From Selenomonadales bacterium (lineage in GTDB: Bacteria; Bacillota; Negativicutes; RGIG982), in contig JAFSAX010000134.1 of the NCBI GenBank assembly GCA_017442105.1, forward strand, positions 1-45,400: a DNA stretch of 45,400 nucleotides, given 5' to 3'. Shown piece by piece: positions 4,637-45,400 of the stretch. The notes below the pieces were generated by a model. That model was not told the DNA's origin and ran no database searches. It was given only the letters and a program-made list of their open reading frames with translations. Both the position numbers and the translations under genes were made by a program. Positions within the stretch are counted from its first letter, which is position 1. The number at the start of each line of letters is the position of its first letter.

Positions 4637-7600
4637 CTACTTTATTTTTTTGTCAAATACGATCGCTTTCAGCACTTCGCCAATATCGTTGTCGAAATCG
4701 TTGTCCGCATATCGGATAAACGTCCAGATGCCATCCGTTATCGTATCGCTCCAGCCTGTGAACGAATTAGATGCCCTTGTCACTTCTCTGCCGACATCGA
4801 TCCAATCCTTTTTCTTGGACATGATCGCCTGCGATGCACGTTGTGCGCGATCGACCACATCGTATGCCGAGGTCATTTTTGCACCGTATACGCGCTCGCC
4901 CATGAACACACCAACCGTTACCTTGAAAAACTCTCTTGCGATTGGGATCATGCCGAACACCTGCTCGCCGAACGACTGCGCCATATGTGCAGGATCGAAT
5001 ACTTTTTTGATACGCTCCGACATATCTTCCTCATCGTCTCCCCACAGCGCACGAAGCACTTCTTCCATCGCCTTCGTAAGAATGAGCCAATACAGCACGC
5101 TTCGCGCAAATTTCATCCATTCTCCCGCGTTGACTGCCCTGCCGTAACGGAAGGCAAGCGCATTGAATACGGTGTTCATATACGAATAGAACATTGTGAG
5201 CTGTTTTGCGACTTCATGACTTCGCTGAACAGGCGCAAGGTCCTTGACATCACCGCTGCCGAATACGCGTCTGACCGCCGCATCGCCTGCCGCTACTGCT
5301 CTCCGCTCGATATTCTCCGCCGAGAGACCTTTTCCCACGCCTTCCCGATACACTCTTTCGTACTCGCTTTTCCAAAGCGGCGCAGCAAACATAAGATCGG
5401 TATATGCCATCAACGTAAAAGCATGCTCCTCCGCCCATTCGATTTTTTCTTTCGCTCCTCTGATCACCTTGCCTGCGAGATTCGGGAGCTTGCTTTCTCC
5501 TTCTCGTATCTCTCTCAGCTTCTCGCGCACATCTCGATCCATCGTCTCTGCTCGATGAGCAAGAAATTCCGATTTTTCCAGACAGAACTGATATTCCTTA
5601 ACAGGATCGGACGCAAAATTCCTCAGAGCGGCAAACGTTCTGCCTGCGCCGATATACTCGGTCACAGGCGCAATGTTCACCAGATTCAGCGCTGCAACAG
5701 TGACGCGCCAGCCCATGACAGCCATCGTCGCGTTTCTGCGAAGGAACGCCGCAACCTTGGTGATCTTATCCTTCTTCTCGTCCATCACCCAATTATCTTT
5801 CACCCACTTGTCCAGACTTCTGTGTGTCGATGTGCCGTACGCTTCTTCGATAGCCACTCTGACTTCCTGCGCATTGATGAGCTTGTAGACATCTCGGATC
5901 GCCTCACGATAACAGATGTTGTGGATCACATCGTCAAGTGCCTTTGGGAGAGGATCAAGCACCGTATAGATCGGTCGCTCGATCGTCTGCCGACTGCGCT
6001 GTTTTGTGAATCCTCGGCGCGTACCAAGCACGGCATTGCCGCTCATCTGCATTTTGGCGACATCGTCTTTCTCTAGGTCCTGCTGCCGTCCGCTTTTGGT
6101 CGGATCATACATGATTGGATAATAGCCGCCCGCAAGATGGTAGACAGTGCCGTCCTTGCCGACGATATCAAACGGCACTGCCTGCTGTTTCTCAATTCCT
6201 ACGCCTGTCATGCGCTCCTCAATAGCGACCGTATCGCCCCAGAACGATTCAAGCAGAGTCCACACGCCTGTGACCGTCTGCCAATCCTCCGCAGTAAGAT
6301 TGCCCAACACTTCTTCAATGTCTTTCTCTGTGAGATTGACAAACGCATCTTTATTTTGCTCGTCAGGTTTCTTGAATCCGTCCAAGACACGCTTACGGTT
6401 AAGCTCCGTCCCCCAGTTAAGAGCCAGCACGATAACCTGTTCCTTCGTCAGCACCGAGGTACCGAGCTTATACCGTTCTTCTTTGCGATGCTCTCTGTAT
6501 TTACCGAACAGCTCATGCACAGCCTTTGCCGCCTGCGCCTGCATGCGCATCTCCTTATTCGCCGCCCGATCGATCGGATCATACAGGAACATCATCGATA
6601 CGCCTTCCTTGCCGCCGTCGTTCCAACGGAATATCGTCTCAGGCTTGATAAGTTCTCCAACCGCCGCATCGCGTGCTGCAGTTATCTTTTCAAGTGTAGT
6701 CGGCAGTGTCATGCCCGTCGGATCATCGTTTGCTTTTGCCTTTACGTTCTTACGGACACCATCTGCGATACGTTGTACGGCATCTTCAAACGATACCGCC
6801 TTGCCGTCCTCATCGATGACCGTAAAGAGCCTGTTCGCATTTTGTCCGATGGTGTATACGCTCGTCAGAATGTCGAACAATCCGTCAAACTCATCCTTCG
6901 TCAATGCACCATAGCCGAGAGCCTTAACAGGGTTCTTCCTGCCTTCAATATTGACCTGCGTTTTGTAGACATCATTGCCGCCTGCCGCATCCTTGATAAA
7001 CTGCGGGATATCGACCTCGCCGTCCTCGTCAAGGAAGTGTGCTTCATATTCTTTGGCATACCGCTTGAACATCGCATCGACGCTCTCGCTCCCCTGCCAC
7101 TCCTGTGGCATGATGGCATCTCGGCGATTGACACCGAACACGTAGAGAAGATGGTTATAAAAATAGCGTTCATCAGCCGCCAATTTGACATTGCCTTTGG
7201 CGATACTGTTTGAACGCTTTTTCAATTTGTTCACTTTTTTATCTACATCTGCTTTCAGTTTTGCAGATTCGTCGGCGAAGTAGCTGAACATGACCTGCTC
7301 CCGCTTCGCTTGTTTCGCTTCTTGCCACTTACCCTTTGCCATCAGACGTGCGACCTCGACACCTTTCATGCGTTCCTTATGCCGCCATGAGTAAGTAGCT
7401 GTCGCCTGTCTGATCGGCATATACATCAGATTCATGAACGCAGCACGTTTGTACATATCCATCTGCCCTTCGACCGCATCACGTACCAGTCGGATACCTT
7501 CTTTTGACGATGTAATAAAGTCCCTAAGCTGTTTGACAGTATCAAGGATCTTCGCCTTGTCCTGCTCTGCCTTTTCCTTCGCCTTGCCTACCGCTTTCTC

Positions 7601-10600
7601 GACAGCTTCTTCCTTATCCTGTTTCGCTTCGACTTTCGCCGCCTGCTTCTGCATTTGATTGATGAGCTTCATCTCGGCTTCACGCCATCGGTAGGTGTAC
7701 TTGAGATCGGCAATTCGTTGTTTGAGCGACTTGACCTCTTTGCCTTCATCCTTCGGCTGTTCTTCTTCGCCGCGAAGAGATTTTTCGATCTCATCCAGAG
7801 CCTTGTCTACGCTCTTGTCAAGACGTCTTTCCTCTTTCTCTTTACGTTCCAGCGCTTCATATTCAAGCGTGAGGATCATCGCCTTATATTTTGAGGATGA
7901 TAGAGCCTTTTCCGCTTCTGCGTTTACAGTCGCTTCAACATCAGTATACGAATCCATATCTTCTACGGCTTGTGCCAGCTCTTTTTCAACCGCTTTTTCA
8001 AGACCGCCGCCGTGCATTTCAAGCTCTGCTTTATAGCTTTCTTCGGTATATCCAAGCGTAGGCAGGATATCCATACTTCCGGACAATCGTACACACTCTT
8101 CTGCACGGAAAATATCCTGTTCTTTTAACCGCTCCTCAATATCCTCGCGCATCGCCTTGATGATCTCCTGTCTGCCCGCTTCCATTTCGTCAGACACATC
8201 TTGCATCGCGATCTTTAACACCTTTTCTTTTGCTTCTTCCTTCGCTTCGCGTACCCATCGTTCGTACATCGCCTGCGTCGTATCGTCGAGTATCTGCATA
8301 CCCTTTTTCTTCGTAATAGATTCGATGCCCTGTACCTTTGCTTCGGCTTCTATCTCCTGCTCGCTTGCGAGCATACGTGCCATAACCGCCCGTACTTCCG
8401 CAGACGGTTTCCCGCCGAGCTGTACGAAATCGGCATAGATGTCGCACAGCCACTTTTTAAACGTGCGGAATACTGCTCTAAGACCGCGTACAGGTGCTTC
8501 GCCTGTGCGTAAGTACGCTTCGAATCCTCGAGCAAACTTCTCATGCTGTTCCCTTGTGAATCCTTGACTATCCTTATACCCAAGCCATTCTTTGACCGTC
8601 TGCCAATCTCTGACGAGCTGTGCAGGCGCACCATCCATCTCGGCAAGCATCTTAAGATCGGCAAGTGCTACATGCCCAAGCTCATGTACGAAGGTCGATT
8701 TGTCTGCCGATTCAAACAAGCTCACAACACGAGACATACCGCTGATGCGCGTCTGACCGCGGACGGATTGATTGTACCGCTCGATAACAGAGATAGCCTT
8801 ATCGTCGAATACAACAAAGCATCTTCCGTCAAGATAACCTTCGTAGGTGATTCCTTTGACACCATATTCGTTGAGCTTACGCGATGCTTCTTCAAGAGAA
8901 CCATATTCTTTTACCAACTTGGAGTAGATGGCATGTCCCGTATCGTTGGCGTTGAAGATGTTATACTTATACTCCTTCTCGTAAATCGAATCTGCAATTT
9001 CGTCCAACTCTTTGCCTAGATCACTACCTTTTCGCACATGCCTATGTGTGGAAAAATCAACCCAATCACCAAAAAGAGAACCTTTTACATATTTGTATGT
9101 CTTACCTTTATAGTCGACAAACTTGCCTGTTGTTGTGCGCTTGCCAATCTCTTTTAAGGCATTTATAACTTTTGGAGGTTGCTCTTTAAGTGGTTTCTGT
9201 TCGTCAAGCAGAACATCATTTTCGGGGATATCGACCTCATACAATTCCCCCGGGGTCTTTGCTTCGTTTTCTGTTTTTTCAATACCCTTCGAAGCAAAGT
9301 TTTCCTCCAGATAATCAGCCGCCTCATCAAGTCGTACATCGTTCCATTTGGACGCAGCTTGTTTTAGGCTGAGTATGGTCGCGGCGACGTTGCCATTTTC
9401 GTTGCTCAGGTAATTCAATGCTCTTTCCAAAACATCAGACGCTCTGTTTCCTTCGGCATCTCGCCATTCGCCCCGCACTGCTTTGTACCCAAGATAAATA
9501 CTTTCTTTTACTTCCCCTGCTAATCTGCGGCGGTATTCTTCTGATACCTTCTTGTCCTGTGCGAAGTACAGCCCCCATCCATGCGCCTGTGCTCCTTCGC
9601 CTGTGCCGATCGCGCCCAAGTCGAAGGTATCAAAGGTATGCGGCGTGCCGTGATACGCGGTCTGATAATATGTAGGCATTCCCTTTTTTCGCTTGCGTAA
9701 ATCGTTTTCATTTGGTATATTAGTAGTAGATAAACTACTGATTTTGTTGAGGACGTAGGGCGGTTTGAGCCTTGCCTCCCTTAACCAATCAGTAGTTTTT
9801 TTCTTGTTTATATACCGAATTTTATTGGTATTAAGGAAATTGTCTATAAACCATTTGTAATCTGTTTGTTTAACTGCATTGGCTGTGCCGTAAGCACTGT
9901 CTTTCCCATAGGATGATAAAATAAAGTTTGCGTTATTGCCTGTGCTGTCTCTTTTTTCTAATAAAAAAGTCACAATACTGACATCGTTTTTGTCGCCCAA
10001 ATCCAACGCTACTAAAATATTCCCGTTAGATTCAGCAACAAATAGAGGATCAGTAAGAGCCCTCGGGATTTTTTTTAGCTCTTCCTTTCCTATACTGTCT
10101 TTGTGTTTCACAAGAATATGCTCAAAAGTTTTATTCTTTATTTTTATCGGTAAGTGTGCAACGCCTGCTATTTCCAAAGCTAACGGAGTATGCATCACAT
10201 AGCTTTCTCCACGCTTCGGAAGTTTTGTCCAAGTATCTACCGTTTTTGCAAAATCAGCTTCATCTTTCTTCAATTTTGCTTCAGCAATATCTTGTCCATA
10301 CGCGCCTTCTTCCACTTCCGTCGCATCTGCCACGATAGAGGTACGTTCACGCATATAATCCTCGGCTGTATACGGTTTGCCTGTTATCTTGCTGATATTG
10401 TCTGCCATACGGTCTGCATATCTGGCGAACAGGATGGCATTCATTCTGCCTGCCTTCTGTACATCTGCATTGCCGCGTTCAAACTGCTTGCGTGCCGCTT
10501 GATATACCTTGTAGCCGCTCGGTGTAAGACCGCGCACTACTGCCATCTCGCTCGCTGTGAGGTTTTCTACCTTGCCTTTGATATCATTGAGAATATCAAG

Positions 10601-12988
10601 ATTCGCAAAGTCCTGATCGAGTGCATCGAAGTCCTCCTGCATCTCGTCTGTTGCTTCAAAGGTATATTCGGGCATCTGGTAGCGTTCGCCGCCGCCCTTG
10701 TATATCTCGCGTGCCATCTCCCACAGCTCGGCTTTGTTCGGCTTACGTTTATGCTGTTTATAAAAGTCGCTATACCACTCGTCATTATCGCTCATGCGTT
10801 TTGCAGGATGGCCTATCTCGTCAGAGTAGTACATATGTATGCCTCTGCTCATGCCTTCTTCCAGTTTCTTCACGATATTGCCGAGGCGCGCATTGATAGC
10901 TGTTTCTGTATCGTGCTTCATCTGTTTCCATGCCTGCATCGGATTGGACGGATTCGACAGGATGATAGCCGCGCCCATGTCCTGCTCTATGCCTGCTTCG
11001 GGGAAATTTGCCGTGATAATACCGTCTATCAGCTCTGCCTGCTTTTCTTCCTGCTCGATGCTGATGCTTTTTGCCATCTCCTCAGCAACAGCCATATAGT
11101 ATTTCTTACGTGCCGCGCTGTGTCCCTTTTCATCAAAAGAGATGTACCGATCGAACTTATCATTGTTCATTACCGTCTGCGCGTAGATTTCCGTAGGCAC
11201 GATGAGATCAGCCTTATTTTCGATGATGGCGTTGACTTCTTCTTGCTCAAGTCCCATTTCCTCAACAAGCTGATTGAACACTACCGCGCCTTCTTCGTCC
11301 TGCAGGGCAAGTTCCGTGTCGACGCGTACTTCCTTAAACTCCGTGTTCTCAACTGCACCTTTGACAGCCGCTTGATAGATCTCTGGATTTTTCTTGAACA
11401 ACTTCGATTCTGCCATATTCGCCTGCAGATTCTTTATCATGGCAAGACCGTTCGCACGCTTCATCTCTGCAAAGAAGATATCATTTTGCTCTTTCTGCAG
11501 ACGGGCAAAGTCGCTCACGCTTTTGAAATTCGACACCGTACCACCGATAACGCCAAGACCGATGATACCGGGAAGAGCTTCTGCCGACGCTTCCAGCGCA
11601 CCTTTGGCAAACTCTGTACCTGTATACTTACGGTATGCCGCCTGTGGTGCATACGTTACGATGGCATTATGTACCGCCTTATCGCTTGCATCCTGCACCG
11701 CTTCTTCTGCCGCTTCGGTCGCTCCTGCTTTTGCCGCCTGCAATACGCGCTCTCTGATGAATTGGGACATACCTGCTTTCAACATTGCTTGATCGCCCGA
11801 TGCCTTTGCCACGATTTCCATGATATCACGCTTGTAATTTGCACCGAGGAGATTCATGATCTGACCGTAATTCCAGAACTCCACGCCTGTTTCCATACCT
11901 GCCGCGATCGCCGCGAACGCACGTGCTTCATTCGGCGTCAAAAGGGTTTTGCCGTCTTTTGACTTCATCTCGCTGTACTCGGCATAATGTCTGCCTGCGC
12001 TGTTCATGAACATATCCTCTGCCATACCGTATCTGAATCCGATACCTGCCGTTGTGATAGCCGCACCCATAGCAGGAGCAGCAAGTGTACCACCCGACAT
12101 GACTGATACACCTACCCCTGTCGCAAGAGCCGTAGCCGCAAGGTTTGATCCTCTCTGTATCCCCTTGTTCATGTGGTAGAGATTAGCACCCGTACCGCCC
12201 GCGATTGCTACCCAAGGATCGTCAAGGAGATTCGGCATAGACTTCTGCTCGGGGATAGACTTCTTGATAGATGCGATCTCTTTTTTCATCTCATCTGTCA
12301 GCTCACCGCCTGCAAAACCAAACACGCCAAGCTCACCGATGCGGTAATTCGCCTTGTCCATCGCATACCCAAGGCTAAACGCCTCTGTTGCCGACTTTGC
12401 TTTCGTCAAGTCCTCGATATTGTGCATGGCGATAGCAACATCGGTATCGCTCATATTCGGATTCTCAACGACTTCTTTCAGCCCGGGGAACTTCGCATAC
12501 ACAGCATCCATATCGTCCCAATCGTTGATACCCTCGGGCGCAAGTGCCATACGCTTCTTCGTATACTCCTGCACACTTCTGCCCTTCGCCATGTTCTCGT
12601 CACTGTACAACAGTGCATTGACAGGGATACCTGTTTCAATACTGATGACCTGTGCCTCACGCTTCTTTTCTTCATCCGTCGCCAAATATTTTCTATACGC
12701 ATTACTGCCTTTCAGATAAGCGGCTGTATCCGATGCAGTTTCAACGATCGTAGACACCGCGCCTGTAAATGGTGCCACAGCACTTACAACATTCTCCGAT
12801 ACATCCGCACTTACCACACCTGTCATCGCACCGCCCGCCAAGTCAAGCATAGACAGATTGTCTGTGCTGTACTCATACTTCGGTTTCACAGGAGCAGGAG
12901 AGGATTGCTGTGCCTTGCGAATGCGTTCTGCACGCTGTTCGTCAACGAGCTTCAATCGCCGTTGCCACCGCTCAATATCGTTTGCCAT
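4637..12988 (-). CDS. Giant (2,783 aa) multi-domain internal virion / ejection protein of the polyvalent type
   Basis: Uninterrupted ORF in the T7 gp16 position after the other core proteins. Gly/Ala-rich hydrophobic N-terminus, an HILVKH nuclease-like module, a YHGTPH...GWGLYFA module, HELGH, an E/K coiled coil, and a roughly 900-aa C-terminal region. Confidence 0.85.
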   Translation of the reverse strand: MANDIERWQRRLKLVDEQRAERIRKAQQSSPAPVKPKYEYSTDNLSMLDLAGGAMTGVVSADVSENVVSAVAPFTGAVSTIVETASDTAAYLKGSNAYRKYLATDEEKKREAQVISIETGIPVNALLYSDENMAKGRSVQEYTKKRMALAPEGINDWDDMDAVYAKFPGLKEVVENPNMSDTDVAIAMHNIEDLTKAKSATEAFSLGYAMDKANYRIGELGVFGFAGGELTDEMKKEIASIKKSIPEQKSMPNLLDDPWVAIAGGTGANLYHMNKGIQRGSNLAATALATGVGVSVMSGGTLAAPAMGAAITTAGIGFRYGMAEDMFMNSAGRHYAEYSEMKSKDGKTLLTPNEARAFAAIAAGMETGVEFWNYGQIMNLLGANYKRDIMEIVAKASGDQAMLKAGMSQFIRERVLQAAKAGATEAAEEAVQDASDKAVHNAIVTYAPQAAYRKYTGTEFAKGALEASAEALPGIIGLGVIGGTVSNFKSVSDFARLQKEQNDIFFAEMKRANGLAMIKNLQANMAESKLFKKNPEIYQAAVKGAVENTEFKEVRVDTELALQDEEGAVVFNQLVEEMGLEQEEVNAIIENKADLIVPTEIYAQTVMNNDKFDRYISFDEKGHSAARKKYYMAVAEEMAKSISIEQEEKQAELIDGIITANFPEAGIEQDMGAAIILSNPSNPMQAWKQMKHDTETAINARLGNIVKKLEEGMSRGIHMYYSDEIGHPAKRMSDNDEWYSDFYKQHKRKPNKAELWEMAREIYKGGGERYQMPEYTFEATDEMQEDFDALDQDFANLDILNDIKGKVENLTASEMAVVRGLTPSGYKVYQAARKQFERGNADVQKAGRMNAILFARYADRMADNISKITGKPYTAEDYMRERTSIVADATEVEEGAYGQDIAEAKLKKDEADFAKTVDTWTKLPKRGESYVMHTPLALEIAGVAHLPIKIKNKTFEHILVKHKDSIGKEELKKIPRALTDPLFVAESNGNILVALDLGDKNDVSIVTFLLEKRDSTGNNANFILSSYGKDSAYGTANAVKQTDYKWFIDNFLNTNKIRYINKKKTTDWLREARLKPPYVLNKISSLSTTNIPNENDLRKRKKGMPTYYQTAYHGTPHTFDTFDLGAIGTGEGAQAHGWGLYFAQDKKVSEEYRRRLAGEVKESIYLGYKAVRGEWRDAEGNRASDVLERALNYLSNENGNVAATILSLKQAASKWNDVRLDEAADYLEENFASKGIEKTENEAKTPGELYEVDIPENDVLLDEQKPLKEQPPKVINALKEIGKRTTTGKFVDYKGKTYKYVKGSLFGDWVDFSTHRHVRKGSDLGKELDEIADSIYEKEYKYNIFNANDTGHAIYSKLVKEYGSLEEASRKLNEYGVKGITYEGYLDGRCFVVFDDKAISVIERYNQSVRGQTRISGMSRVVSLFESADKSTFVHELGHVALADLKMLAEMDGAPAQLVRDWQTVKEWLGYKDSQGFTREQHEKFARGFEAYLRTGEAPVRGLRAVFRTFKKWLCDIYADFVQLGGKPSAEVRAVMARMLASEQEIEAEAKVQGIESITKKKGMQILDDTTQAMYERWVREAKEEAKEKVLKIAMQDVSDEMEAGRQEIIKAMREDIEERLKEQDIFRAEECVRLSGSMDILPTLGYTEESYKAELEMHGGGLEKAVEKELAQAVEDMDSYTDVEATVNAEAEKALSSSKYKAMILTLEYEALERKEKEERRLDKSVDKALDEIEKSLRGEEEQPKDEGKEVKSLKQRIADLKYTYRWREAEMKLINQMQKQAAKVEAKQDKEEAVEKAVGKAKEKAEQDKAKILDTVKQLRDFITSSKEGIRLVRDAVEGQMDMYKRAAFMNLMYMPIRQATATYSWRHKERMKGVEVARLMAKGKWQEAKQAKREQVMFSYFADESAKLKADVDKKVNKLKKRSNSIAKGNVKLAADERYFYNHLLYVFGVNRRDAIMPQEWQGSESVDAMFKRYAKEYEAHFLDEDGEVDIPQFIKDAAGGNDVYKTQVNIEGRKNPVKALGYGALTKDEFDGLFDILTSVYTIGQNANRLFTVIDEDGKAVSFEDAVQRIADGVRKNVKAKANDDPTGMTLPTTLEKITAARDAAVGELIKPETIFRWNDGGKEGVSMMFLYDPIDRAANKEMRMQAQAAKAVHELFGKYREHRKEERYKLGTSVLTKEQVIVLALNWGTELNRKRVLDGFKKPDEQNKDAFVNLTEKDIEEVLGNLTAEDWQTVTGVWTLLESFWGDTVAIEERMTGVGIEKQQAVPFDIVGKDGTVYHLAGGYYPIMYDPTKSGRQQDLEKDDVAKMQMSGNAVLGTRRGFTKQRSRQTIERPIYTVLDPLPKALDDVIHNICYREAIRDVYKLINAQEVRVAIEEAYGTSTHRSLDKWVKDNWVMDEKKDKITKVAAFLRRNATMAVMGWRVTVAALNLVNIAPVTEYIGAGRTFAALRNFASDPVKEYQFCLEKSEFLAHRAETMDRDVREKLREIREGESKLPNLAGKVIRGAKEKIEWAEEHAFTLMAYTDLMFAAPLWKSEYERVYREGVGKGLSAENIERRAVAAGDAAVRRVFGSGDVKDLAPVQRSHEVAKQLTMFYSYMNTVFNALAFRYGRAVNAGEWMKFARSVLYWLILTKAMEEVLRALWGDDEEDMSERIKKVFDPAHMAQSFGEQVFGMIPIAREFFKVTVGVFMGERVYGAKMTSAYDVVDRAQRASQAIMSKKKDWIDVGREVTRASNSFTGWSDTITDGIWTFIRYADNDFDNDIGEVLKAIVFDKKIK

Positions 12989-39599: not shown

Positions 39600-39630
39600 A
39601 ACCGACTACCCTATCGTAGTCGGTTTTCTT
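39600..39630 (+). terminator. Intrinsic terminator between the morons and int
   Basis: 10-bp stem aaccgactac/gtagtcggtt, a 6-nt loop, then ttttctt. Confidence 0.75.
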
Positions 39631-39646
39631 GAAAGGAGAGAACCAT

Positions 39647-40810
39647 ATGCCGAGTAAGATACGCAAACGCGGTAACAGCTATCTGCTGACCGTCACGCAT
39701 GAGAAGAAAGAATATACTAAGACTGTCCGTGTATCCACTAAGAAAGAAGCGGAAAAGGCATGGGCACTCTTCGCTTCTGAGGTCATCAAAGACAGGCTGT
39801 CTGCACGTGCCGAGGGAGATATGACGCTCGATGACTTTTATGCGTACTGGACGAAACATTACGCGGAGATGAATCAAGCTATATCATCGCAGGGATTGAA
39901 CGAGCGCATATTCCAACGTATCAGCGGCGCACTCGGTCACATGAAGATATCGAAGATAAGACCGCGACACATTCTGTCTTTTGCCAAACAGCTTACTAAG
40001 CCTGATGCTTCAAATTACGGCAAGCCACTCTCTACCGCCTACATCAAGAAGCATATGTCCAATCTCCGCACAATGTTCTCCTGTGCTGTTCAGTGGGGAT
40101 TCATCGACAATAACCCGATGGATAATATCAGATCGCCCAAGGGAGTGACGAAGAAAAAGGTACTCCCAACCGAGGCAGAGCTTGCCGCTTTTTTCTCGGC
40201 AGCAGACAATGCTACCACAAAACATAAGCTGTGGATCGCGCTTGCCTTTACACTCGGATTACGCAGAGAAGAGATATTCGGCTTGCAATGGGGGGACATC
40301 GACTTTGACCGCCGATCGCTTACTGTAAACCGAGTAGCGGTCTATGTGTCGGGTCGCGGTATATTTGTTAAGGATGCCAAGACGGATAATTCTTACCGCA
40401 CGATACCGATAAACAATTTTGTCTTAAACCTGCTGTACGCATGGCGTGGCGAAGTGATCGCCGCAGAACAGAACGTGATAAGCATCAATGCACCGATAAG
40501 ACCTGTTGATTTCCTCTTTCCGAAGGCAGACGGCTCTGTGGGGCATCCTCACGCGATCAACACATTTATGAGTAGATTTTGCAAGAAGAACAATATCCCT
40601 ACTATCTCTCCTCACGATCTCAGACATATGTACGGAAGCTACCTCATTGCAGGCGGCGTGAATATCGCTACGATCAGTTCACTCCTTGGACACTCGGACA
40701 AGTCCTTTACGCTCAAGACATACATCCATGAATTGAAGTCCCTTGAATCTCATACGGCAGACATCATGGACAGCACGATGAGCCAGATGAAAAATATCAC
40801 AGGCAAATAA
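39647..40810 (+). CDS. int: Tyrosine integrase
   Basis: The ATG at 39647 follows AAAGGAGAG. The N-terminal SAM-like domain begins KIRKRGNSYLLTV. The catalytic region contains LRHMYGS, LLGHSD and TYIH. Confidence 0.9.
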   Translation: MPSKIRKRGNSYLLTVTHEKKEYTKTVRVSTKKEAEKAWALFASEVIKDRLSARAEGDMTLDDFYAYWTKHYAEMNQAISSQGLNERIFQRISGALGHMKISKIRPRHILSFAKQLTKPDASNYGKPLSTAYIKKHMSNLRTMFSCAVQWGFIDNNPMDNIRSPKGVTKKKVLPTEAELAAFFSAADNATTKHKLWIALAFTLGLRREEIFGLQWGDIDFDRRSLTVNRVAVYVSGRGIFVKDAKTDNSYRTIPINNFVLNLLYAWRGEVIAAEQNVISINAPIRPVDFLFPKADGSVGHPHAINTFMSRFCKKNNIPTISPHDLRHMYGSYLIAGGVNIATISSLLGHSDKSFTLKTYIHELKSLESHTADIMDSTMSQMKNITGK

Positions 40811-40880: not shown

Positions 40881-40936
40881 GCTATAGGTGCATTTCCCTT
40901 CGATGCCTGCGAACCCTTGATATTACTGGATTTGTT

Positions 40937-40981
40937 TGGTCGGAACGACAGGATTTGAACCTGCGACCTCTACCACCCCAA
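40937..40981 (-). other. attP core: the 3-prime 45 nt of a tRNA-Pro(GGG)-like gene, not a complete tRNA
   Basis: The reverse complement reads TTGGGGT-GGTAG-AGGTC-GCAGG-TTCAAAT-CCTGT-CGTTCCG-A-CCA. That covers the anticodon loop, the 3-prime anticodon stem, the variable loop, the T arm, the acceptor 3-prime strand and CCA. There is no complementary 5-prime half. Confidence 0.75.
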
Positions 40982-41235: not shown

Positions 41236-41694
41236 TTATTTTTTGACAAACGCTACCGCCATCCATTGTCTGAATAGTTTGCCTTCTACCATGTCTGGAT
41301 CTTCGAAGTAGAGTGCTTTTGCCATCTTTACATAGATGTCTGCACTTGTACCCATGCTTGCCGACAAGTCGGAGTACAACATATTCATCGCGTAGTAGAA
41401 GTCGCACTTATGCTCGATGCCGTGCGCGAGAGCCAGTTTGTCGGTATCGTCTTTCGTCCAATGACCACCGACGGTGCCGTCCACGTTGTGCATCTTGCCG
41501 ACAGCCATTTTCGCCGTATCTTCATCGAAGTGCATACCGTGGAGCAGGCAATGCAGTTTTGTGACCATTGCCCAATACGTTTCAGGACAATACTTCTTCA
41601 AATCTTCTGCCATCTCGCAGACAACGTGTTTTGCTTCTTTATACTTCTCTGGATGCTGTTCAAGCTTCTCCATGTACTTCTTTAATTCGTGCAT
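41236..41694 (-). CDS. Cargo protein E: 152-aa helical His/Met-rich protein of unknown function
   Basis: The ATG at 41694 shares one base with the D stop (TAATG). GAGGAGGG RBS. Sequence begins MHELKKYMEKLEQHPEKYKE and contains GKMHNVDGTVGGHWTKDDT. Confidence 0.65.
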   Translation of the reverse strand: MHELKKYMEKLEQHPEKYKEAKHVVCEMAEDLKKYCPETYWAMVTKLHCLLHGMHFDEDTAKMAVGKMHNVDGTVGGHWTKDDTDKLALAHGIEHKCDFYYAMNMLYSDLSASMGTSADIYVKMAKALYFEDPDMVEGKLFRQWMAVAFVKK

Positions 41695-42077
41695 TATGCG
41701 CCCTCCTCTGCCGTTCCTGCGGTCGTAGTAGGTGCAGGTATACCAACTATCGCACCGCAATTTTCAGCTCGCAGGAAGCCATTCCAGAGGACAAAACGAG
41801 CGGTGTCTGCCGCGACCTTCACGACATATCTGCATCTCGTCTTGACTTGGTTTGCATACACGTTATGACCGCATTTGCGAACGAGTGGGTACTGTGTAGC
41901 ATCCGTCCCGATCTGAATCACAACTGGCATCAGATTAGTCGCAGTCGCAGGAATGTCCTGTGCGATTCTGATAACGTATTGACAGCAGTTCTGGAAGGTC
42001 GCCTGCGGCAATGTCAGCACAAGCGTATCAGCCGTCACCGCGACAGCCGTGGTCAATATCTCTTTACAACAATTCAT
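41694..42077 (-). CDS. Cargo protein D: 127-aa beta-rich, Cys-studded protein starting MNCC
   Basis: AAGGAGG RBS. Cys residues occur at MNCC, QNCCQ, RKCGH, TRCRY and ENCG. Confidence 0.7.
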   Translation of the reverse strand: MNCCKEILTTAVAVTADTLVLTLPQATFQNCCQYVIRIAQDIPATATNLMPVVIQIGTDATQYPLVRKCGHNVYANQVKTRCRYVVKVAADTARFVLWNGFLRAENCGAIVGIPAPTTTAGTAEEGA

Positions 42078-42091
42078 GTCTATTCCTCCTT

Positions 42092-42120
42092 ATAAAAAGA
42101 GAGGCGTTACCGCCTCTCTC
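42092..42120 (-). terminator. Intrinsic terminator or attenuator between cargo genes C and D
   Basis: Minus RNA forms AGAGAGGCG-GUAA-CGCCUCUCU followed by UUUUAU, directly abutting the D RBS. Confidence 0.65.
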
Positions 42121-42142
42121 ATAGTCACGCCGAAGCGGAAAG

Positions 42143-42865
42143 TTATGCAGCTACACCGCAACCGTATCCACAGCCGCCATAGCCGTAATTGTGACGAATC
42201 GATTCATACGGGCTCGACACAACATACGCAGGTACTACAGGCGGACGGACCGTATTGACGATGTTTTCCGTCTGGCGAATGTTGCCGATCTGAAGCTGTG
42301 CCGCTTGCAGGTCGAATTGAAGCTGTGCGATGCGCTGATCTTTCGCGTTCGATTCCATCAAGCAGAGCTTGTCAAGAATCTTCTGCGTATTTGCGGTCGC
42401 ATTATTCGTGATCGTGCACGTGTTCTGTGCGTTTTCAAAGCGAACCGCATCAATGTTGCGGTTCGTTTCGCAACAACATTGCTGTGCCGCGAATCTGTTC
42501 TCGGCGATCGCCGAGCCGAGAGCAAAACGATTCTCAAGAACATCACGACCAAGACCGTTGAAGCCCTGAAGCATCGTAGTATTTTGTGCATAGAAGCCGT
42601 CAGCAAGACCGTTCTGCACGCCACGAATACCGTTCTTGATATCCTGCGAATTGAAACCATCAAATAAATCGTTGCGAGTAAGTGCACCGTTGGCGAATGC
42701 CGCCATGCCGTTGTTGCCCCAACCGCCGAAACCACCGCCACCCAAAAGAGCGAACAGCACTAAGAACCACATACAACCGCCACCGCCCCAACCGAAGCCG
42801 TCATTGTAACCGCGATTATTAATGTCCATGACAGGCACTACGCCTGCGCCATTTTCAAATGCCAT
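42143..42865 (-). CDS. Cargo protein C: 240-aa Gly/Asn/Gln/Cys-rich membrane protein
   Basis: The ATG at 42865 lies 6 nt after GAGGTG; the track GTG start is part of that RBS. Features are GWGGGGCMWFLVLFALLGGGGFGGWGNNG, QQCCCETNRN and the C-terminal NYGYGGCGYGCGVAA. Confidence 0.7.
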   Translation of the reverse strand: MAFENGAGVVPVMDINNRGYNDGFGWGGGGCMWFLVLFALLGGGGFGGWGNNGMAAFANGALTRNDLFDGFNSQDIKNGIRGVQNGLADGFYAQNTTMLQGFNGLGRDVLENRFALGSAIAENRFAAQQCCCETNRNIDAVRFENAQNTCTITNNATANTQKILDKLCLMESNAKDQRIAQLQFDLQAAQLQIGNIRQTENIVNTVRPPVVPAYVVSSPYESIRHNYGYGGCGYGCGVAA

Positions 42866-42917
42866 ACTTTTCACCTCGTTTGTTTTATTTTTTATCTGAA
42901 CTCTGACTGCGCGCTTG

Positions 42918-43145
42918 TCAAAGTTTCATTCCGAATTGTGATAAGAATTGATTGAGGGAGGCATCGTCCATTCCTCTCTGGCGAGCGAGATTGCGAACAG
43001 TCGCTTTCAGCTCGTCCTCGTTTTTGCCTTGTGCCATCTGCATTGCTCGACCGAACATCGGGTCATTACCGAACTGCTGTTGCATCAGCGCCATTGGATT
43101 CTGACTTGACTGTAACATTTGCATCATTTGCATTGGATTGAACAT
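42918..43145 (-). CDS. Cargo protein B: 75-aa Gln/Met-rich protein
   Basis: GGAAGGGGTG RBS. Sequence begins MFNPMQMMQMLQSSQNPMALMQQQF. Its first 80 nt overlap gene A in another frame. Confidence 0.5.
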   Translation of the reverse strand: MFNPMQMMQMLQSSQNPMALMQQQFGNDPMFGRAMQMAQGKNEDELKATVRNLARQRGMDDASLNQFLSQFGMKL

Positions 43146-43530
43146 TAGTTTGCACCCCTTCCAGTTTTCGTTCTAAGACCTCGATGCGTGACTGCAGAGC
43201 CGCGATGATGTCGCCCTCCTTTGGCTGTGCCTGCGAAATCACACGCTTATACTCCTCAAATATCGGCATCCCATCAAGTCCGATACTCTTTTTGTATATG
43301 GTCGCCTCGGACGGACAGTCGAAATAGTGCGGGGTTCCATCTAAATCTATTTGAGCCGCTTTTGCCTCGTCTCTGCCCGTCACAAGTCGACCTTTCAAAC
43401 CACTCGGCATAGGCATCGAGCCGTATGCCTGTGGCTGAATCTGCTGTTGCATAGACCGTAACCGTTGCTGATACATCATCTGCATAGGATCGGGCGGTAT
43501 GTGTTGATAGCCGTAATTAAAGCCGTTCAT
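43066..43530 (-). CDS. Cargo protein A: 154-aa protein with a Gln/Met/Pro-rich N-terminus
   Basis: GAGGTGAGGA RBS. Sequence begins MNGFNYGYQHIPPDPMQMMYQQRLRSMQQQIQPQ, followed by the core LKGRLVTGRDEAKAAQIDLDGTPHYF. Confidence 0.65.
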   Translation of the reverse strand: MNGFNYGYQHIPPDPMQMMYQQRLRSMQQQIQPQAYGSMPMPSGLKGRLVTGRDEAKAAQIDLDGTPHYFDCPSEATIYKKSIGLDGMPIFEEYKRVISQAQPKEGDIIAALQSRIEVLERKLEGVQTNVQSNANDANVTVKSESNGADATAVR

Positions 43531-43615
43531 GTATCCTCACCTCTTGGCTATATAATGCCGTAAAAACCCCTACTGAAACGGTCGATAATACCCCAATAAA
43601 CGGTCAGCAAAAGGT

Positions 43616-43660
43616 CACACAACGCATTTTTACAACCAAAAAATGCGTGTTGTGGTTTTT
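43616..43660 (+). repeat. Long imperfect inverted repeat followed by a T-run (plus-strand terminator-like or operator-like)
   Basis: Core stem of 10 bp, acgcattttt/aaaaatgcgt, with a 7-nt loop. Four further bp form after a bulge, then gttttt follows. Confidence 0.45.
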
Positions 43661-43710
43661 ACCCCTCGTTTATGCCACGAATTCCCCTCATAAGAACCAA
43701 AAATGGGCAT

Positions 43711-43743
43711 AAAAAAAGAAGCACCCCCTTAAAAAGGGAGTGC
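43711..43743 (-). terminator. Intrinsic terminator ending the late/lysis operon
   Basis: Minus RNA forms GCACUCCCU-loop-AGGGGGUGC (one G-U pair) followed by UUCUUUUUUU. Confidence 0.8.
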
Positions 43744-43977
43744 CTCTTGTATTGCCTTATGCAATTTGTCGTAGGCACGTTCTATCCGTCTGCCTACTGT
43801 TTTTTCAGAGAGATTCATGTGATACGCGATCTTCACATTGCTCCACCGTTTGCTGAACTTCAGCCGAATGATCTCACATTCTTCCTCGCTCAAGTTCGCT
43901 TCTTCGATGAGCGTATCTAATTCAGATCGGATCGCTCTGTCGGCGACATCACGTGCTGACTTGCGGTGTTCTCGCAT
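43729..43977 (-). CDS. 82-aa sigma-70 region-4-like HTH protein
   Basis: The ATG at 43977 lies 7 nt after GGAGG. LSEEECEIIRLKFSKRWSNVKIAYHMNLSEKTVGRRIERAYDKL is the HTH. Confidence 0.65.
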   Translation of the reverse strand: MREHRKSARDVADRAIRSELDTLIEEANLSEEECEIIRLKFSKRWSNVKIAYHMNLSEKTVGRRIERAYDKLHKAIQEALPF

Positions 43978-44159
43978 TCGTTTCCTCCTTCTATGTAAGA
44001 GAACAGGAATGCGAGATTGAATGCAATACTCGCAACCAAGAGCAATACCGCGTAGAAACATCCTCTCTTCAATCGGCTAATTACTCTTTCCTGTTCATTG
44101 ATTTTCTCCGTTGATTTAACCATGTGCATTGTTGCGATTGCTTCCTTTACCTCTGTCAT
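43917..44159 (-). CDS. 80-aa coiled-coil plus single-TM protein in the lysis cassette
   Basis: AGAGGGGGA RBS. TM segment is FYAVLLLVASIAFNLAFLF. Its tail overlaps the next gene by 61 nt. Confidence 0.5.
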   Translation of the reverse strand: MTEVKEAIATMHMVKSTEKINEQERVISRLKRGCFYAVLLLVASIAFNLAFLFSYIEGGNECENTASQHVMSPTERSDLN

Positions 44160-44200: not shown

Positions 44201-44722
44201 TTAAAATTTCATTTTTACACCGACAGCCGTACTGTCATTGTCTCGATACACCCATCCACCGACCGTATCTGACTTGCCGATGGGAAAGTCCACCGTATAT
44301 GCCATGCCGTCATTGCCGTATCCGACACCGACTGCCCATCGCTTAGTTTCGTCCCGCGTGGGAACATTCACGTCCATCGTGACTTTGCTCGTCTGGTCGA
44401 GTGTGAGTTTGTTTTTATCGAACACATACCGTTCGTCCTCAGCTTTCGTGAATGTCTGTTCCTGCCCGTTCACGCGGACAACGAAGTCGGTCTTGCCGAC
44501 GTCTGCTTGCAGGTCTGTCTTTTCTTTTTTCCCATTGACTACAGTTTTCGGCACGTATGCGATCTCGGTCTTTGTTACCGTTTCGCCCTGCACGTATACG
44601 GGCTTTTCTTTTGTCACCGTGATAGTTTCCCTTGACGCGTAATGTTCGCCCGCCAGACAGCCGCCTACGAAGCACAGCAGGCATACGCATACAGTAGGGA
44701 TATACTGTTGAATGTTCATCAT
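44201..44722 (-). CDS. Lipoprotein with a beta-strand C-terminus ending in Phe (spanin-like or outer-membrane candidate)
   Basis: Signal peptide with the lipobox CFVGG-C. C-terminus is WAVGVGYGNDGMAYTVDF...TAVGVKMKF. ATGA-coupled to the amidase. Confidence 0.65.
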   Translation of the reverse strand: MMNIQQYIPTVCVCLLCFVGGCLAGEHYASRETITVTKEKPVYVQGETVTKTEIAYVPKTVVNGKKEKTDLQADVGKTDFVVRVNGQEQTFTKAEDERYVFDKNKLTLDQTSKVTMDVNVPTRDETKRWAVGVGYGNDGMAYTVDFPIGKSDTVGGWVYRDNDSTAVGVKMKF

Positions 44723-45234
44723 TGTTTCCTCGTGATGTAGTCCGTCACGCCGCGAGCGATGGCACGTGCAAACTCATCTTCTCGCTCAATAAGAAGTGCC
44801 TCATCATGCACATTATCGATGAACGCGCATTCCACAAGCACTGCAGGACATTTCGTATGTTTGAGCACATAGAAGCCAGCCTCTTTTATACCGCGATCGA
44901 CGGTGCCGATGCTTGACACGACCTGCGACTGAATGTGATGAGCGAGCTTATCTCCTGTGCGAGAAAACGCGAATGTTTCCGTTCCGCGCGCGTTATGATT
45001 CAGACAGGCGTTGCAATGGATGGAGATAAACAGATCTGCTCCCCATCTATTTGACACATTACATATTTCGCCCAAATCATCTGTCTGCACGGCCATGACT
45101 TCGCATCCTGCTTTCTCCAAATATCCTGCTACACGCTGCATCAATCGCATACATACGTCTGCTTCTTTTACGCGGCTGCCAAGTGCACCGGGATCTCTGC
45201 CCGGGAAGTGTCCGCCATTGATACACACCTTCAT
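44719..45234 (-). CDS. N-acetylmuramoyl-L-alanine amidase endolysin (Amidase_3 type, no wall-binding domain)
   Basis: MKVCINGGHFPGRDPGA...ADLFISIHCNA...GTETF...PAVLVECAFIDN. Confidence 0.9.
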   Translation of the reverse strand: MKVCINGGHFPGRDPGALGSRVKEADVCMRLMQRVAGYLEKAGCEVMAVQTDDLGEICNVSNRWGADLFISIHCNACLNHNARGTETFAFSRTGDKLAHHIQSQVVSSIGTVDRGIKEAGFYVLKHTKCPAVLVECAFIDNVHDEALLIEREDEFARAIARGVTDYITRKQ

Positions 45235-45400
45235 TTTTTCTCCTCCTTCTCAAATTGATCGGGGATCCCATCTTTGTCGGTATCGACCATACAGCCTGCG
45301 ATGAATGTCACGAAAGCGATCATTCCACCGCCGACCATTTCGGTGATAAGAGAAAGGAGATCGCGTAGTGCGACCTCTCCTTCTTTCCACAGCCACAGCC
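45231..45400 (-). CDS. Putative holin, 3-prime part (same ORF as 1-286; 45260-45400 duplicates 1-141)
   Basis: In-frame continuation ...DKDGIPDQFEKEEKK. The stop TGA at 45231-45233 overlaps the amidase ATG. Confidence 0.6.
   Translation of the reverse strand, partial: LWLWKEGEVALRDLLSLITEMVGGGMIAFVTFIAGCMVDTDKDGIPDQFEKEEKK
45260..45400. repeat. Terminal direct repeat, copy 2
   Basis: Identical to 1-141. Confidence 0.95.

Follow-up and report, generated by a model that had tools for sequence, protein, structure and literature searches.

The five small genes A to E at positions 41236 to 43530 of the window, by which we mean the whole 45.4-kb contig JAFSAX010000134.1 of a 'Selenomonadales bacterium' metagenome-assembled genome (MAG), are best explained as the structural genes of a self-contained phage cassette. 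An earlier note on this DNA, made from the sequence alone, had described them as a five-gene cargo cluster at the end of a prophage. The unit is larger than that description allowed, a seven-gene block in which two further genes, T and S, and a terminator are followed by A, B, C, one of two alternative genes (D or D2) and E. With regard to what this block makes, we tentatively propose a membrane-anchored fibre with an exchangeable head that would act at the cell envelope late in infection. The components of the block are listed here from the highest coordinate downwards.

44211..44238, minus strand: sigma-70-like promoter candidate upstream of T and S, ATGACA-16-AAAAAT with a TG extension (consensus scan, a pattern match only)
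43917..44159, minus strand: T, an 80-aa single-pass membrane protein with an N-terminal helix, a transmembrane (TM) segment and a short tail (open reading frame (ORF) list; maximum Kyte-Doolittle hydropathy over 19 residues (KD19) 2.35)
43729..43977, minus strand: S, an 82-aa stand-alone helix-turn-helix (HTH) protein of GerE/LuxR or sigma-70 region-4 type (Pfam, PHROG, NCBIfam and PDB matches)
43716..43748, minus strand: intrinsic terminator directly after S, with a 15-bp stem, 7 GC pairs and a T-run (consensus scan)
43531..43715, minus strand: spacer between S and A, the presumed regulated promoter region of A to E
43066..43530, minus strand: A, 154 aa (ORF list)
42918..43145, minus strand: B, 75 aa, Met/Gln-rich at the N-terminus and helical over a short C-terminal half (ORF list, composition)
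42143..42865, minus strand: C, the 240-aa core protein (ORF list, AlphaFold2 (AF2) model, homologues)
42092..42120, minus strand: GC-rich hairpin and T-run between C and D (RNAfold, -22.3 kcal/mol)
41694..42077, minus strand: D, a 127-aa Cys-rich eight-strand beta-sandwich (AF2 model, mean predicted local distance difference test score (pLDDT) 86)
41236..41694, minus strand: E, a 152-aa helical DUF7841 protein coupled to D through TAATG (Pfam PF25223, 3e-21)

The five ORFs that the earlier note read on the minus strand all stand at the coordinates listed for A to E, and each start is preceded by a purine run resembling a ribosome-binding site (RBS), as it had said (GAGGTGAGG for A, GGAAGGGGTG for B, ACGAGGTGA for C, AAGGAGGA for D and GAGGAGGG for E). 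Homologues back ATG 42865 (MAFENG) and not GTG 42874 as the start of C, and 41694 (MHELKKY) and not TTG 41760 as that of E; the stop of D and the start of E share the sequence TAATG, bearing out the claimed translational coupling of these two genes. The odd amino acid composition that had been remarked upon is also real, B being 16% Met and 16% Gln, while C is enriched in Cys (3.6-fold), Asn (2.5-fold) and Gly (2.0-fold), D in Cys (5.9-fold), and E in His (4.8-fold) and Met (2.7-fold). Comparison with a relative of 85-95% amino acid identity gives ratios of non-synonymous to synonymous substitution (dN/dS) of 0.08 for S, 0.18 for A, 0.08 for B, 0.12 for C, 0.07 for D and 0.07 for E, and this evidence of purifying selection (0.07-0.18 over A to E), together with the size of the C family, demonstrates that A to E are real genes and not chance ORFs.

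Comparative genomics indicates that these genes are conserved as a block. With C as the query we retrieved 70 loci from genomes and 80 from viruses, ran iterative searches of the ORFs in them with the proteins of the window, and compared about 160 loci overall; co-occurrence is counted over those loci whose contig leaves enough flank. Among C loci, A is present in 131 of 138, B in 111 of 138 and E in 69 of 119, while S stands upstream of A in 112 of 138, and the order S-A-B-C-(D|D2)-E is fixed across the fetched loci. Such co-occurrence upholds the proposal that the cluster is one functional unit. D or D2 follows C in 147 of 159 C loci, the remaining 12, with neither, being mostly cut by contig ends. 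C is the most conserved of the cassette proteins; it has 5,353 matches in a 90%-identity collection, all unnamed and without Pfam domains, and its family comprises at least 2,322 clusters in a 50%-identity library, the best 150 of which are all 110-310 aa long and include no fusion. A fusion that would link C or E to a familiar domain was sought and not found.

The contigs bearing the cassette come nearly all from animal guts, and are assigned to Phascolarctobacterium, Dialister, Megasphaera, Ruminococcus, Lachnospiraceae, Oscillospiraceae, Christensenellaceae, Gastranaerophilales, Treponema, Bacteroidales and others. The host binning of phage-size contigs is unreliable; Negativicutes and Clostridia are nonetheless confirmed as hosts because the cassette occurs there on contigs of 177 kb to 2.5 Mb. 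Besides Negativicutes, it is carried on large contigs of Clostridia, Lachnospiraceae and Ruminococcus (up to 442 kb), and so by monoderm as well as diderm hosts. In one 125-kb Faecalibacterium MAG contig two C-containing regions (L076 and L077) lie 39 kb apart, which could reflect tandem prophages or an assembled concatemer. A phage collection yielded 13 records that match C, all of them metagenomic and none cultured. Carriage by elements other than phages found no favour: C has no match in a plasmid collection, and although the 4-6 kb 'Bacteriophage sp.' records that contain C might suggest a satellite or a small virus that integrates, these are pieces of scaffolds, linear and unverified. Close relatives without the cassette, sought through the amidase gene, were not found, nor were close relatives of any kind in IMG/VR.

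In the window genome the cluster is, as had been claimed, the final late-strand block directly before attP and the integrase. Across the other loci, genes for holins, endolysins, XhlA-type hemolysins or tail proteins lie upstream of it, and those on its downstream side are integrases, an invertase, repressors, early genes and a few structural genes, from which we deduce that its usual site is the far end of the late region. Other positions occur. In the complete genome of Dulem virus 35 an XhlA-like-T-S-A-B-C-D2-H arrangement lies between the minor capsid gene and those for the scaffold and the major capsid protein, with about 15 kb separating it from the endolysin and integrase genes, the XhlA-type gene and T moving with the cassette; in Dulem virus 36, A-B-C-D come immediately after the gene for a receptor-binding protein (RBP), and in another locus (L014) the cassette stands ahead of a T4-type neck protein gene. 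In the closest relatives (L165, L166 and L167, where C is 82% identical) the T-S-A..E-integrase block is the same, and seven additional ORFs lie between the amidase gene and T in L166 and L167 (5497-8640) that are absent from L165 (8012-8860). The real variable cargo slot is consequently upstream of T and S, and the cassette stays stable while its neighbours change. The varied positions and the location of this slot lead us to regard the block as a conserved, mobile and self-regulated late cassette and not as strain-specific cargo. L166 also has a Tad2-like gene upstream of its amidase gene.

These observations bear directly on the lysogenic-conversion role that the earlier note had assigned to the cluster, namely that of a moron expressed from the repressed prophage by way of T and S and altering the envelope, whether for superinfection exclusion or for adhesion. 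Its place as the last block ahead of attP and the integrase, which the window shares with its relatives, the frequency of integrases and repressors downstream, and the differing positions in differing genomes could all be read in this way, as could the seemingly autonomous layout, with a promoter-like site before T and S and terminators on either side but no canonical promoter before A; morons of the lambda lom and bor type are autonomous units flanked by terminators, within or at the end of a late operon and at varied positions. Unlike these, the cassette has six or seven genes in a fixed order with an internal regulator, and belongs to a very large, conserved family under strong purifying selection that travels with its own S gene. 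It has no compositional anomaly (GC is 0.45-0.50 over 41-44 kb against about 0.49 genome-wide), has stayed the same where the adjoining cargo differs, lies among late genes and in their orientation, and matches no defence family in PADLOC. Finally, gene C is a target of homing elements. In one locus (L016, 6470-7600), from a relative of the window phage, C is split exactly within its invariant QQCCCETNRNID motif. The inserted DNA contains an ORF for a GIY-YIG/NUMOD-type endonuclease of 272 aa and matches a group I intron at 31 bits (E 1.5e-5), short of the Rfam gathering score. In two other loci (L025 and L050) ORFs that look by eye like HNH-type endonucleases lie between C and D. Homing elements typically target conserved genes of the lytic cycle, often structural genes. 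On this balance the conversion role is not supported, and we consider it improbable.

The identity of the products was sought by homology with little return. Comparison of A to E with Pfam, PHROGs, NCBIfam and PADLOC recovered only DUF7841 (in E) and PHROGs without function, the best E-values against the PADLOC defence models being 0.018-0.035; profiles of A, C, D, D2 and E gave only noise against PDB sequences, including a match to the haemagglutinin subunit HA2 at E 3.6; and a search of the literature found no functional description of DUF7841, PF25223 or Dulem virus. The view that no product is homologous in sequence to a characterised virion, lysis, replication or defence family therefore stands. 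C matches PHROG 16490 at 1e-29 and A matches PHROG 21718 at 1.3e-5, both of them PHROGs with no assigned function.

What can be said of C comes from its architecture, which consists of an acidic, conserved N-terminal tail, a Gly-flanked hydrophobic segment at about residues 30-48, a helix at about residues 75-206 and a Pro/Tyr/Cys-rich tail. Over 251 homologues the hydrophobic segment has a median KD19 of 1.68, with 69% at 1.6 or above, which is of membrane grade and agrees with the earlier description of C as a membrane protein; the charge across it is weakly biased, with a mean of -2.2 on the N side and -0.8 on the C side. The AF2 model is a single helix of 132 residues (75-206) with a pLDDT of 51, a confidence too low for a fold search, and the hydrophobic period of the helix is 3.64 residues, its power of 57 exceeding the 95th percentile of shuffled sequences (47), although not all shuffles. 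At its N-terminus C has no virion-docking domain, and it is homologous to no structural family in Pfam or PHROG. Small C proteins of the same kind occur in phages labelled siphovirus-, myovirus-, podovirus- and crAss-like.

D is better defined, at least as a model. Against the PDB it has no match at E<=1e-3, the best being the Pa193 baseplate/tail-fibre chain at E 0.022, while against BFVD it has 37 matches at E<=1e-3. Those beyond its own family include tail fibre, T7 tail fibre, tail-collar fibre, RBP, collagen triple helix and hyaluronidase tail fibre proteins, the fibre, RBP and collagen-fibre proteins being matched at E 1e-5 to 1e-3 with a query-normalised TM-score (TMq) of 0.45-0.55. The modelled fold thus resembles the distal domains of phage tail fibres and RBPs. 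The earlier note had set homology to structural components and incorporation into virions against its own interpretation; the predicted fold supplies the former in part, the resemblance being at the level of fold, and it does not bear on the latter. The D family alignment has no consistent weak match in Pfam. In other phages the position of D is occupied by D2, a protein of about 140 aa that matches Pfam BclA_C at 4e-7 and 1e-3, below the cut-off. We found D in 40 loci and D2 in 108, never both, and the idea that they are diverged homologues was rejected on an hhalign probability of 0.4%.

The gene coupled to D may belong with it functionally. At least 1,017 homologues of E carry DUF7841 as their only domain. 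The BFVD match of rank 12 for D is a 294-aa 'DUF7841 domain-containing protein' from a crAss-like virus (TMq 0.62, root-mean-square deviation 2.0, 96 columns), and this structural alignment suggests a D-like domain fused to an E domain. Several long DUF7841 proteins (P0390, P0412, P0400 and others) have N-terminal RGG/DYG/Met-rich tracts of 100-200 residues, which resemble eukaryotic phase-separating domains and are unusual among phage proteins. In loci without E its position is filled by one of two other unnamed families (L001 7224-8003, L020 5019-5951, L021 7169-7777 and L151 2885-3463; L002 7149-7721 and L004 1981-2535). One is marked by a conserved F..LGL.GFKR.H motif, the other by an R/D/Y/G-rich centre between helical ends; Pfam has no match to either, and a ferritin-like or coat-like identity for these proteins was set aside for want of Pfam support.

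The tip-like fold of D raises the question of whether the cassette encodes an accessory fibre of the virion, in which C would form a trimeric coiled-coil shaft, D or D2 the tip, E and B chaperones and A an adaptor to the particle, the whole being an exchangeable module for host range or adhesion. Tail-fibre and chaperone modules such as stf-tfa of lambda and gp37-gp38 of T4 are the closest analogues, and the side-fibre genes of lambda are the last late genes before attP. Like them, the cassette has a gene for a putative fibrous shaft followed by small, tightly coupled accessory genes, of which the one after the tip gene recalls a fibre-chaperone pair; D is modelled as a beta-sandwich of tail-fibre/RBP type, with a baseplate/tail-fibre chain as its best PDB match; D2 resembles the BclA_C/C1q domains that often form the tip of collagen-like phage fibres; and unrelated tips are swapped at one position. 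That no component has a signal peptide would suit a virion protein, as would the homing elements in C and the cassettes found after an RBP gene, among head genes and before a neck protein gene. However, in contrast to tail-fibre modules, C is only about 240 aa long, alpha-helical, and has a segment of TM grade (in 69% of homologues) where a virion-attachment domain would be expected; the tip is a separate polypeptide; and no fibre family is homologous in sequence to the cassette proteins. No fusion of C with larger fibre domains occurs, PHROG offers no structural annotation, the occurrence of the same C in sipho-, myo-, podo- and crAss-like phages leaves no evident common docking site, and an HTH regulator of its own with a terminator upstream is unusual for structural genes. 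We rank the envelope-anchored fibre above a virion fibre because C has a hydrophobic segment, regulation is dedicated to the cassette, XhlA-type and holin genes are linked to it and a virion-docking domain is missing, and we regard the virion fibre as rather unlikely.

The dedicated regulation just mentioned depends on S and T. S matches Pfam GerE at 4.2e-5, with a score of 23.5 bits that is exactly the cut-off (28.7 bits for its homologue in L007), and Sigma70_r4 at 6e-5; it also matches the PHROG 'sigma factor' at 1e-11, the NCBIfam 'positive control sigma-like factor' at 2e-5 and, as its best PDB match, region 4 of an extracytoplasmic function (ECF) sigma factor (3hug) at 0.007. As only region 4 is matched, and no sigma region 2 was detected in its 82 aa by Pfam, NCBIfam or PDB comparison, we predict S to be a small DNA-binding regulator and not a sigma factor, and by its place and type it is a candidate activator of A to E. 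The length of 82 aa is favoured by a strong RBS before ATG 43977 and by relatives called at the same length, an alternative form of 110 aa from 44061 being less likely. T overlaps the start of S by 61 nt and has no PHROG match; it is called as an 80-aa gene in L166 and L167, small TM ORFs of T-related type lie directly 5' of S in 72 of 117 S loci with XhlA-type 'hemolysin' genes in others, and T probably belongs to the unit.

The earlier note had placed a terminator after the gene on the late, lysis side of the cluster, and our scan locates it at 43748-43716, where it would insulate A to E from upstream transcription. A terminator-like hairpin lies 3' of S in 25 of 34 non-redundant loci, and terminators flank S and also lie beyond E. 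In the second terminator that had been proposed, between C and D, the fold and the T-run are confirmed but the consensus scan is silent; it is probably a partial terminator, with comparable hairpins in 22 of 57 loci, weakly above background. By consensus scan the window spacer between S and A has no canonical sigma-70 promoter, and it contains a near-perfect inverted repeat of about 16 bp (about 43616-43654) with arms CACAACACGCATTTTT ... AAAAATGCGTTGTGTG; in L165 one of the arms is present in an additional, inserted copy. Spacers of a Phascolarctobacterium-type lineage (L007, L010, L089 and L126) instead have TAGGGA(A/T)T direct repeats phased at 11 bp, with a TATA(A/G) box downstream of them that adjoins the RBS of A, and these repeats are candidate binding sites for S.

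A has a Gln/Pro/Met/Tyr-rich, low-complexity N-terminus, a conserved core of about 50 residues with the motif KGRxVxxxEAxAAxIDxDG...IYxK, and a C-terminal coiled coil. It has no consistent Pfam match across 37 family members, and a profile search of PDB sequences returned coiled-coil noise only. At its 3' end A shares 80 nt with B, which is read in another frame (43066-43145, minus strand), and the low-complexity tail of A is an out-of-frame reading of the Met/Gln codons of B; the overlap is larger in other loci, for example 178 nt in L008.

The low-complexity regions of A, B and C might alternatively point to a self-assembling matrix or condensate, that is, a cross-linkable coat or gel of Tyr/Arg/Gly/Gln/Cys-rich proteins forming a membrane-bound assembly compartment or a layer that protects particles. 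The long forms of E with RGG/DYG tracts of 100-200 residues, the R/D/Y/G-rich centres of alternative proteins at the E position and the Cys-rich termini of C and D are compatible with this, and the BclA_C-like D2 and GerE-like regulator bring to mind the exosporium fibre BclA and the spore coat genes under GerE, which share Cys- and Tyr-rich proteins and a regulator that, in the cassette, may be a stand-alone HTH protein of GerE type and size. Yet all of this support is compositional, many of the assigned hosts do not sporulate, the ferritin-like or coat-like identity of the alternative proteins at the E position lacks Pfam support as noted, and no precedent is known from tailed phages. The BclA comparison in particular founders because the stalk of the cassette is alpha-helical, neither C nor D2 has collagen-like repeats, the BclA_C matches are sub-threshold and confined to D2, and the D of the window is of another, unrelated fold family; an exosporium fibre of BclA type was rejected on these grounds, and we think a matrix very improbable.

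Another possibility is that C is a membrane-active effector of the late phase, its Gly/Phe/Trp-rich hydrophobic segment being a fusion or pore peptide that A and B keep soluble. The outcome would be the completion of envelope disruption, in the manner of a spanin or XhlA, or the release at lysis of a receptor-targeted particle that acts like a bacteriocin on neighbouring cells. The tight linkage to XhlA-type hemolysin and holin genes, maintained even in the transposed block of Dulem virus 35, is suggestive here, as is the layout of C, a putative anchor and a long helix, which resembles i-spanins and class I fusion proteins; in their richness in Met and Gln, A and B are reminiscent of the Met-rich chaperones to which TM segments bind. 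PBSX supplies a precedent for a cytotoxic accessory protein of the lysis cassette in XepA, a beta-sandwich protein made late and without a signal sequence, which crosses the membrane, is not part of the virion and plays a role that is still unsettled (PMC6834076). XepA, YomS and XhlA of PBSX and SPbeta resemble the cassette in that beta-sandwich proteins are encoded beside XhlA-type, holin and amidase genes (PMC6834076), while differing in that XepA has no sequence similarity to D and is not among its top 50 PDB fold matches, forms a pentameric dumbbell and has no stalk partner, and PBSX has neither a dedicated regulator nor Gln/Met-rich partners. The comparison with spanins (Rz/Rz1 and the u-spanin gp11) is similarly incomplete. 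C has a putative N-terminal anchor, a long predicted helix and conserved cysteines, and its gene comes immediately behind the lysis genes in a phage whose Negativicutes host is diderm; against this, no lipobox lipoprotein for the outer membrane is encoded in A to E, the cassette also occurs on large contigs of monoderm Clostridia, and related phages of diderm hosts already have lipobox-bearing u-spanin-like genes upstream. On these points C was rejected as a spanin, and they also count against a membrane effector, for which there is also no recognisable immunity gene and no sequence or fold support for pore formation, the HA2 match being noise. C was likewise rejected as the phage holin, given the 2-TM holin already upstream of the amidase gene and the 15 kb between C and the endolysin gene in Dulem virus 35. 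A membrane effector seems to us distinctly improbable.

Returning to the anchored fibre, we envisage the following sequence of events. The T-S unit would make S, the GerE/sigma-region-4-type HTH protein, which would turn on a dedicated promoter lying past its own terminator, in the spacer, so that A, B and C are produced along with less D and E from beyond the C/D hairpin. C would enter the cytoplasmic membrane by way of its Gly-flanked hydrophobic segment and oligomerise through its amphipathic helix of about 130 residues, with 11/3 periodicity, to give a stalk of about 20 nm that ends in the Pro/Tyr/Cys-rich tail. This stalk would be capped by D, or in other phages by the BclA_C/C1q-like D2, with E (DUF7841) as the partner or chaperone of D, while the Gln/Met-rich, coiled-coil proteins A and B would serve as adaptors or chaperones and might shield the hydrophobic segment of C. 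Parts without signals could cross through lesions made by holin or XhlA-type proteins, much as a signal-less endolysin does, and the assembled fibre would do its work at the host envelope as the lytic cycle closes. XepA, described above, is a precedent for this proposal too (PMC6834076). The fibre may serve to bind a ligand in the envelope, whether to mask receptors and protect progeny or to help break the envelope up. Receptor-blocking exclusion proteins such as Llp of T5 and Cor of phi80 and N15 offer a comparison. Each is a small lipoprotein that has a signal peptide and acts singly, and its gene adjoins tail or RBP genes. They would share with the cassette an envelope location, a place in the distal tail or late region and a proposed role in masking receptors on behalf of progeny and lysogens; the cassette differs in its six or seven genes and in the absence of a lipobox from A to E, and there is no evidence of receptor binding by its proteins.

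Several observations count against this proposal. The C model is of low confidence (pLDDT 51), the hydrophobic segment in the C of the window itself is borderline (KD19 1.59, with only 11-13 apolar residues), and the charge bias, if anything, points to an N-out/C-in topology that would leave the stalk and head in the cytoplasm. Inspection of the protein sequences found no signal peptide or lipobox in A to E, so that A, B, D and E appear to have no export signals. D is no more variable between relatives than C, unlike typical receptor-binding tips. The TAGGGA layout is not convincingly reproduced in the window spacer or elsewhere in its genome, and a shared S-box promoter was accordingly given up. 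The window phage already has a full lysis set (XhlA-like protein, 2-TM holin, amidase and a lipoprotein-like protein, X); six or seven genes are many for receptor masking; the low-complexity composition of A, B and E is left unaccounted for; and homology assigns a function to none of the cassette proteins.

More broadly, we can conceive of the cassette as a virion-independent machine, a regulator-gated coiled-coil fibre, anchored in or inserting into a membrane, with low-complexity, chaperone-like partners and swappable RBP-type heads. It might be a fusogen or egress device, a released killer particle directed at receptors or an envelope-bound receptor trap, and would be common to many gut phages of monoderm and diderm hosts alike; we put this forward with the same reserve. 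There is a substantial chance that the cassette, although most like a fibre-plus-chaperone module in its working, is categorically new.

An exact direct repeat of 141 bp at the termini (1-141 and 45260-45400) shows the contig to be a circularly closed phage genome of about 45.26 kb, in which a holin with 2 TM segments spans the contig junction directly upstream of the amidase gene. The minus strand carries most genes, and transcription runs from the tail genes through the XhlA-like gene, the holin, Amidase_3, X, T and S to A-E; 3' of E come a stretch like the 3' half of a tRNA and the convergent tyrosine integrase gene. The relevant features outside the cassette are the following.

292-564: XhlA-like membrane protein
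44719-45234: Amidase_3 endolysin
44201-44722, minus strand: X, 173 aa, directly after the amidase
about 40935-40980, minus strand: lookalike of a tRNA T-arm and acceptor 3' half, GGTTCAAATCC...CGACCA, between E and the integrase (by eye)
39629-40810: tyrosine integrase, convergent

The attP core that had been placed after E receives mixed support, because a tRNA-3'-half-like stretch consistent with such a core can be recognised by eye, while neither ARAGORN nor Rfam calls a tRNA at about 40935-40980. X has a lipobox-like N-terminus (LLCFVGGC) and ends in VGVKMKF, which resembles an outer-membrane beta-signal; it has a single homologue among the roughly 160 loci and may be an outer-membrane lysis component suited to a diderm host. 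The tail region includes an ORF of 2,783 aa (4637-12988, minus strand), and its counterpart in L165, a giant protein of 2,694 aa, carries LPD3 and ART-PolyVal domains and is thus like a polyvalent protein.

This analysis corrects a habit of annotation, in that strain-specific cargo is not always what fills the slot from the lysis genes to attP. The C family, of at least 2,322 clusters at 50% identity, keeps the same partners in gut phages of animals whose hosts span several bacterial phyla, and has no named member and no cultured representative; what is learnt from one inducible prophage would therefore annotate thousands of genes. If the cassette does encode a fibre of the virion, it would represent a portable module for host range. 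If it encodes a fibre independent of the virion, with swappable heads, it would be a new element in the dealings of temperate gut phages with the cell envelope, whether in exclusion, in egress or in attack on neighbouring cells.

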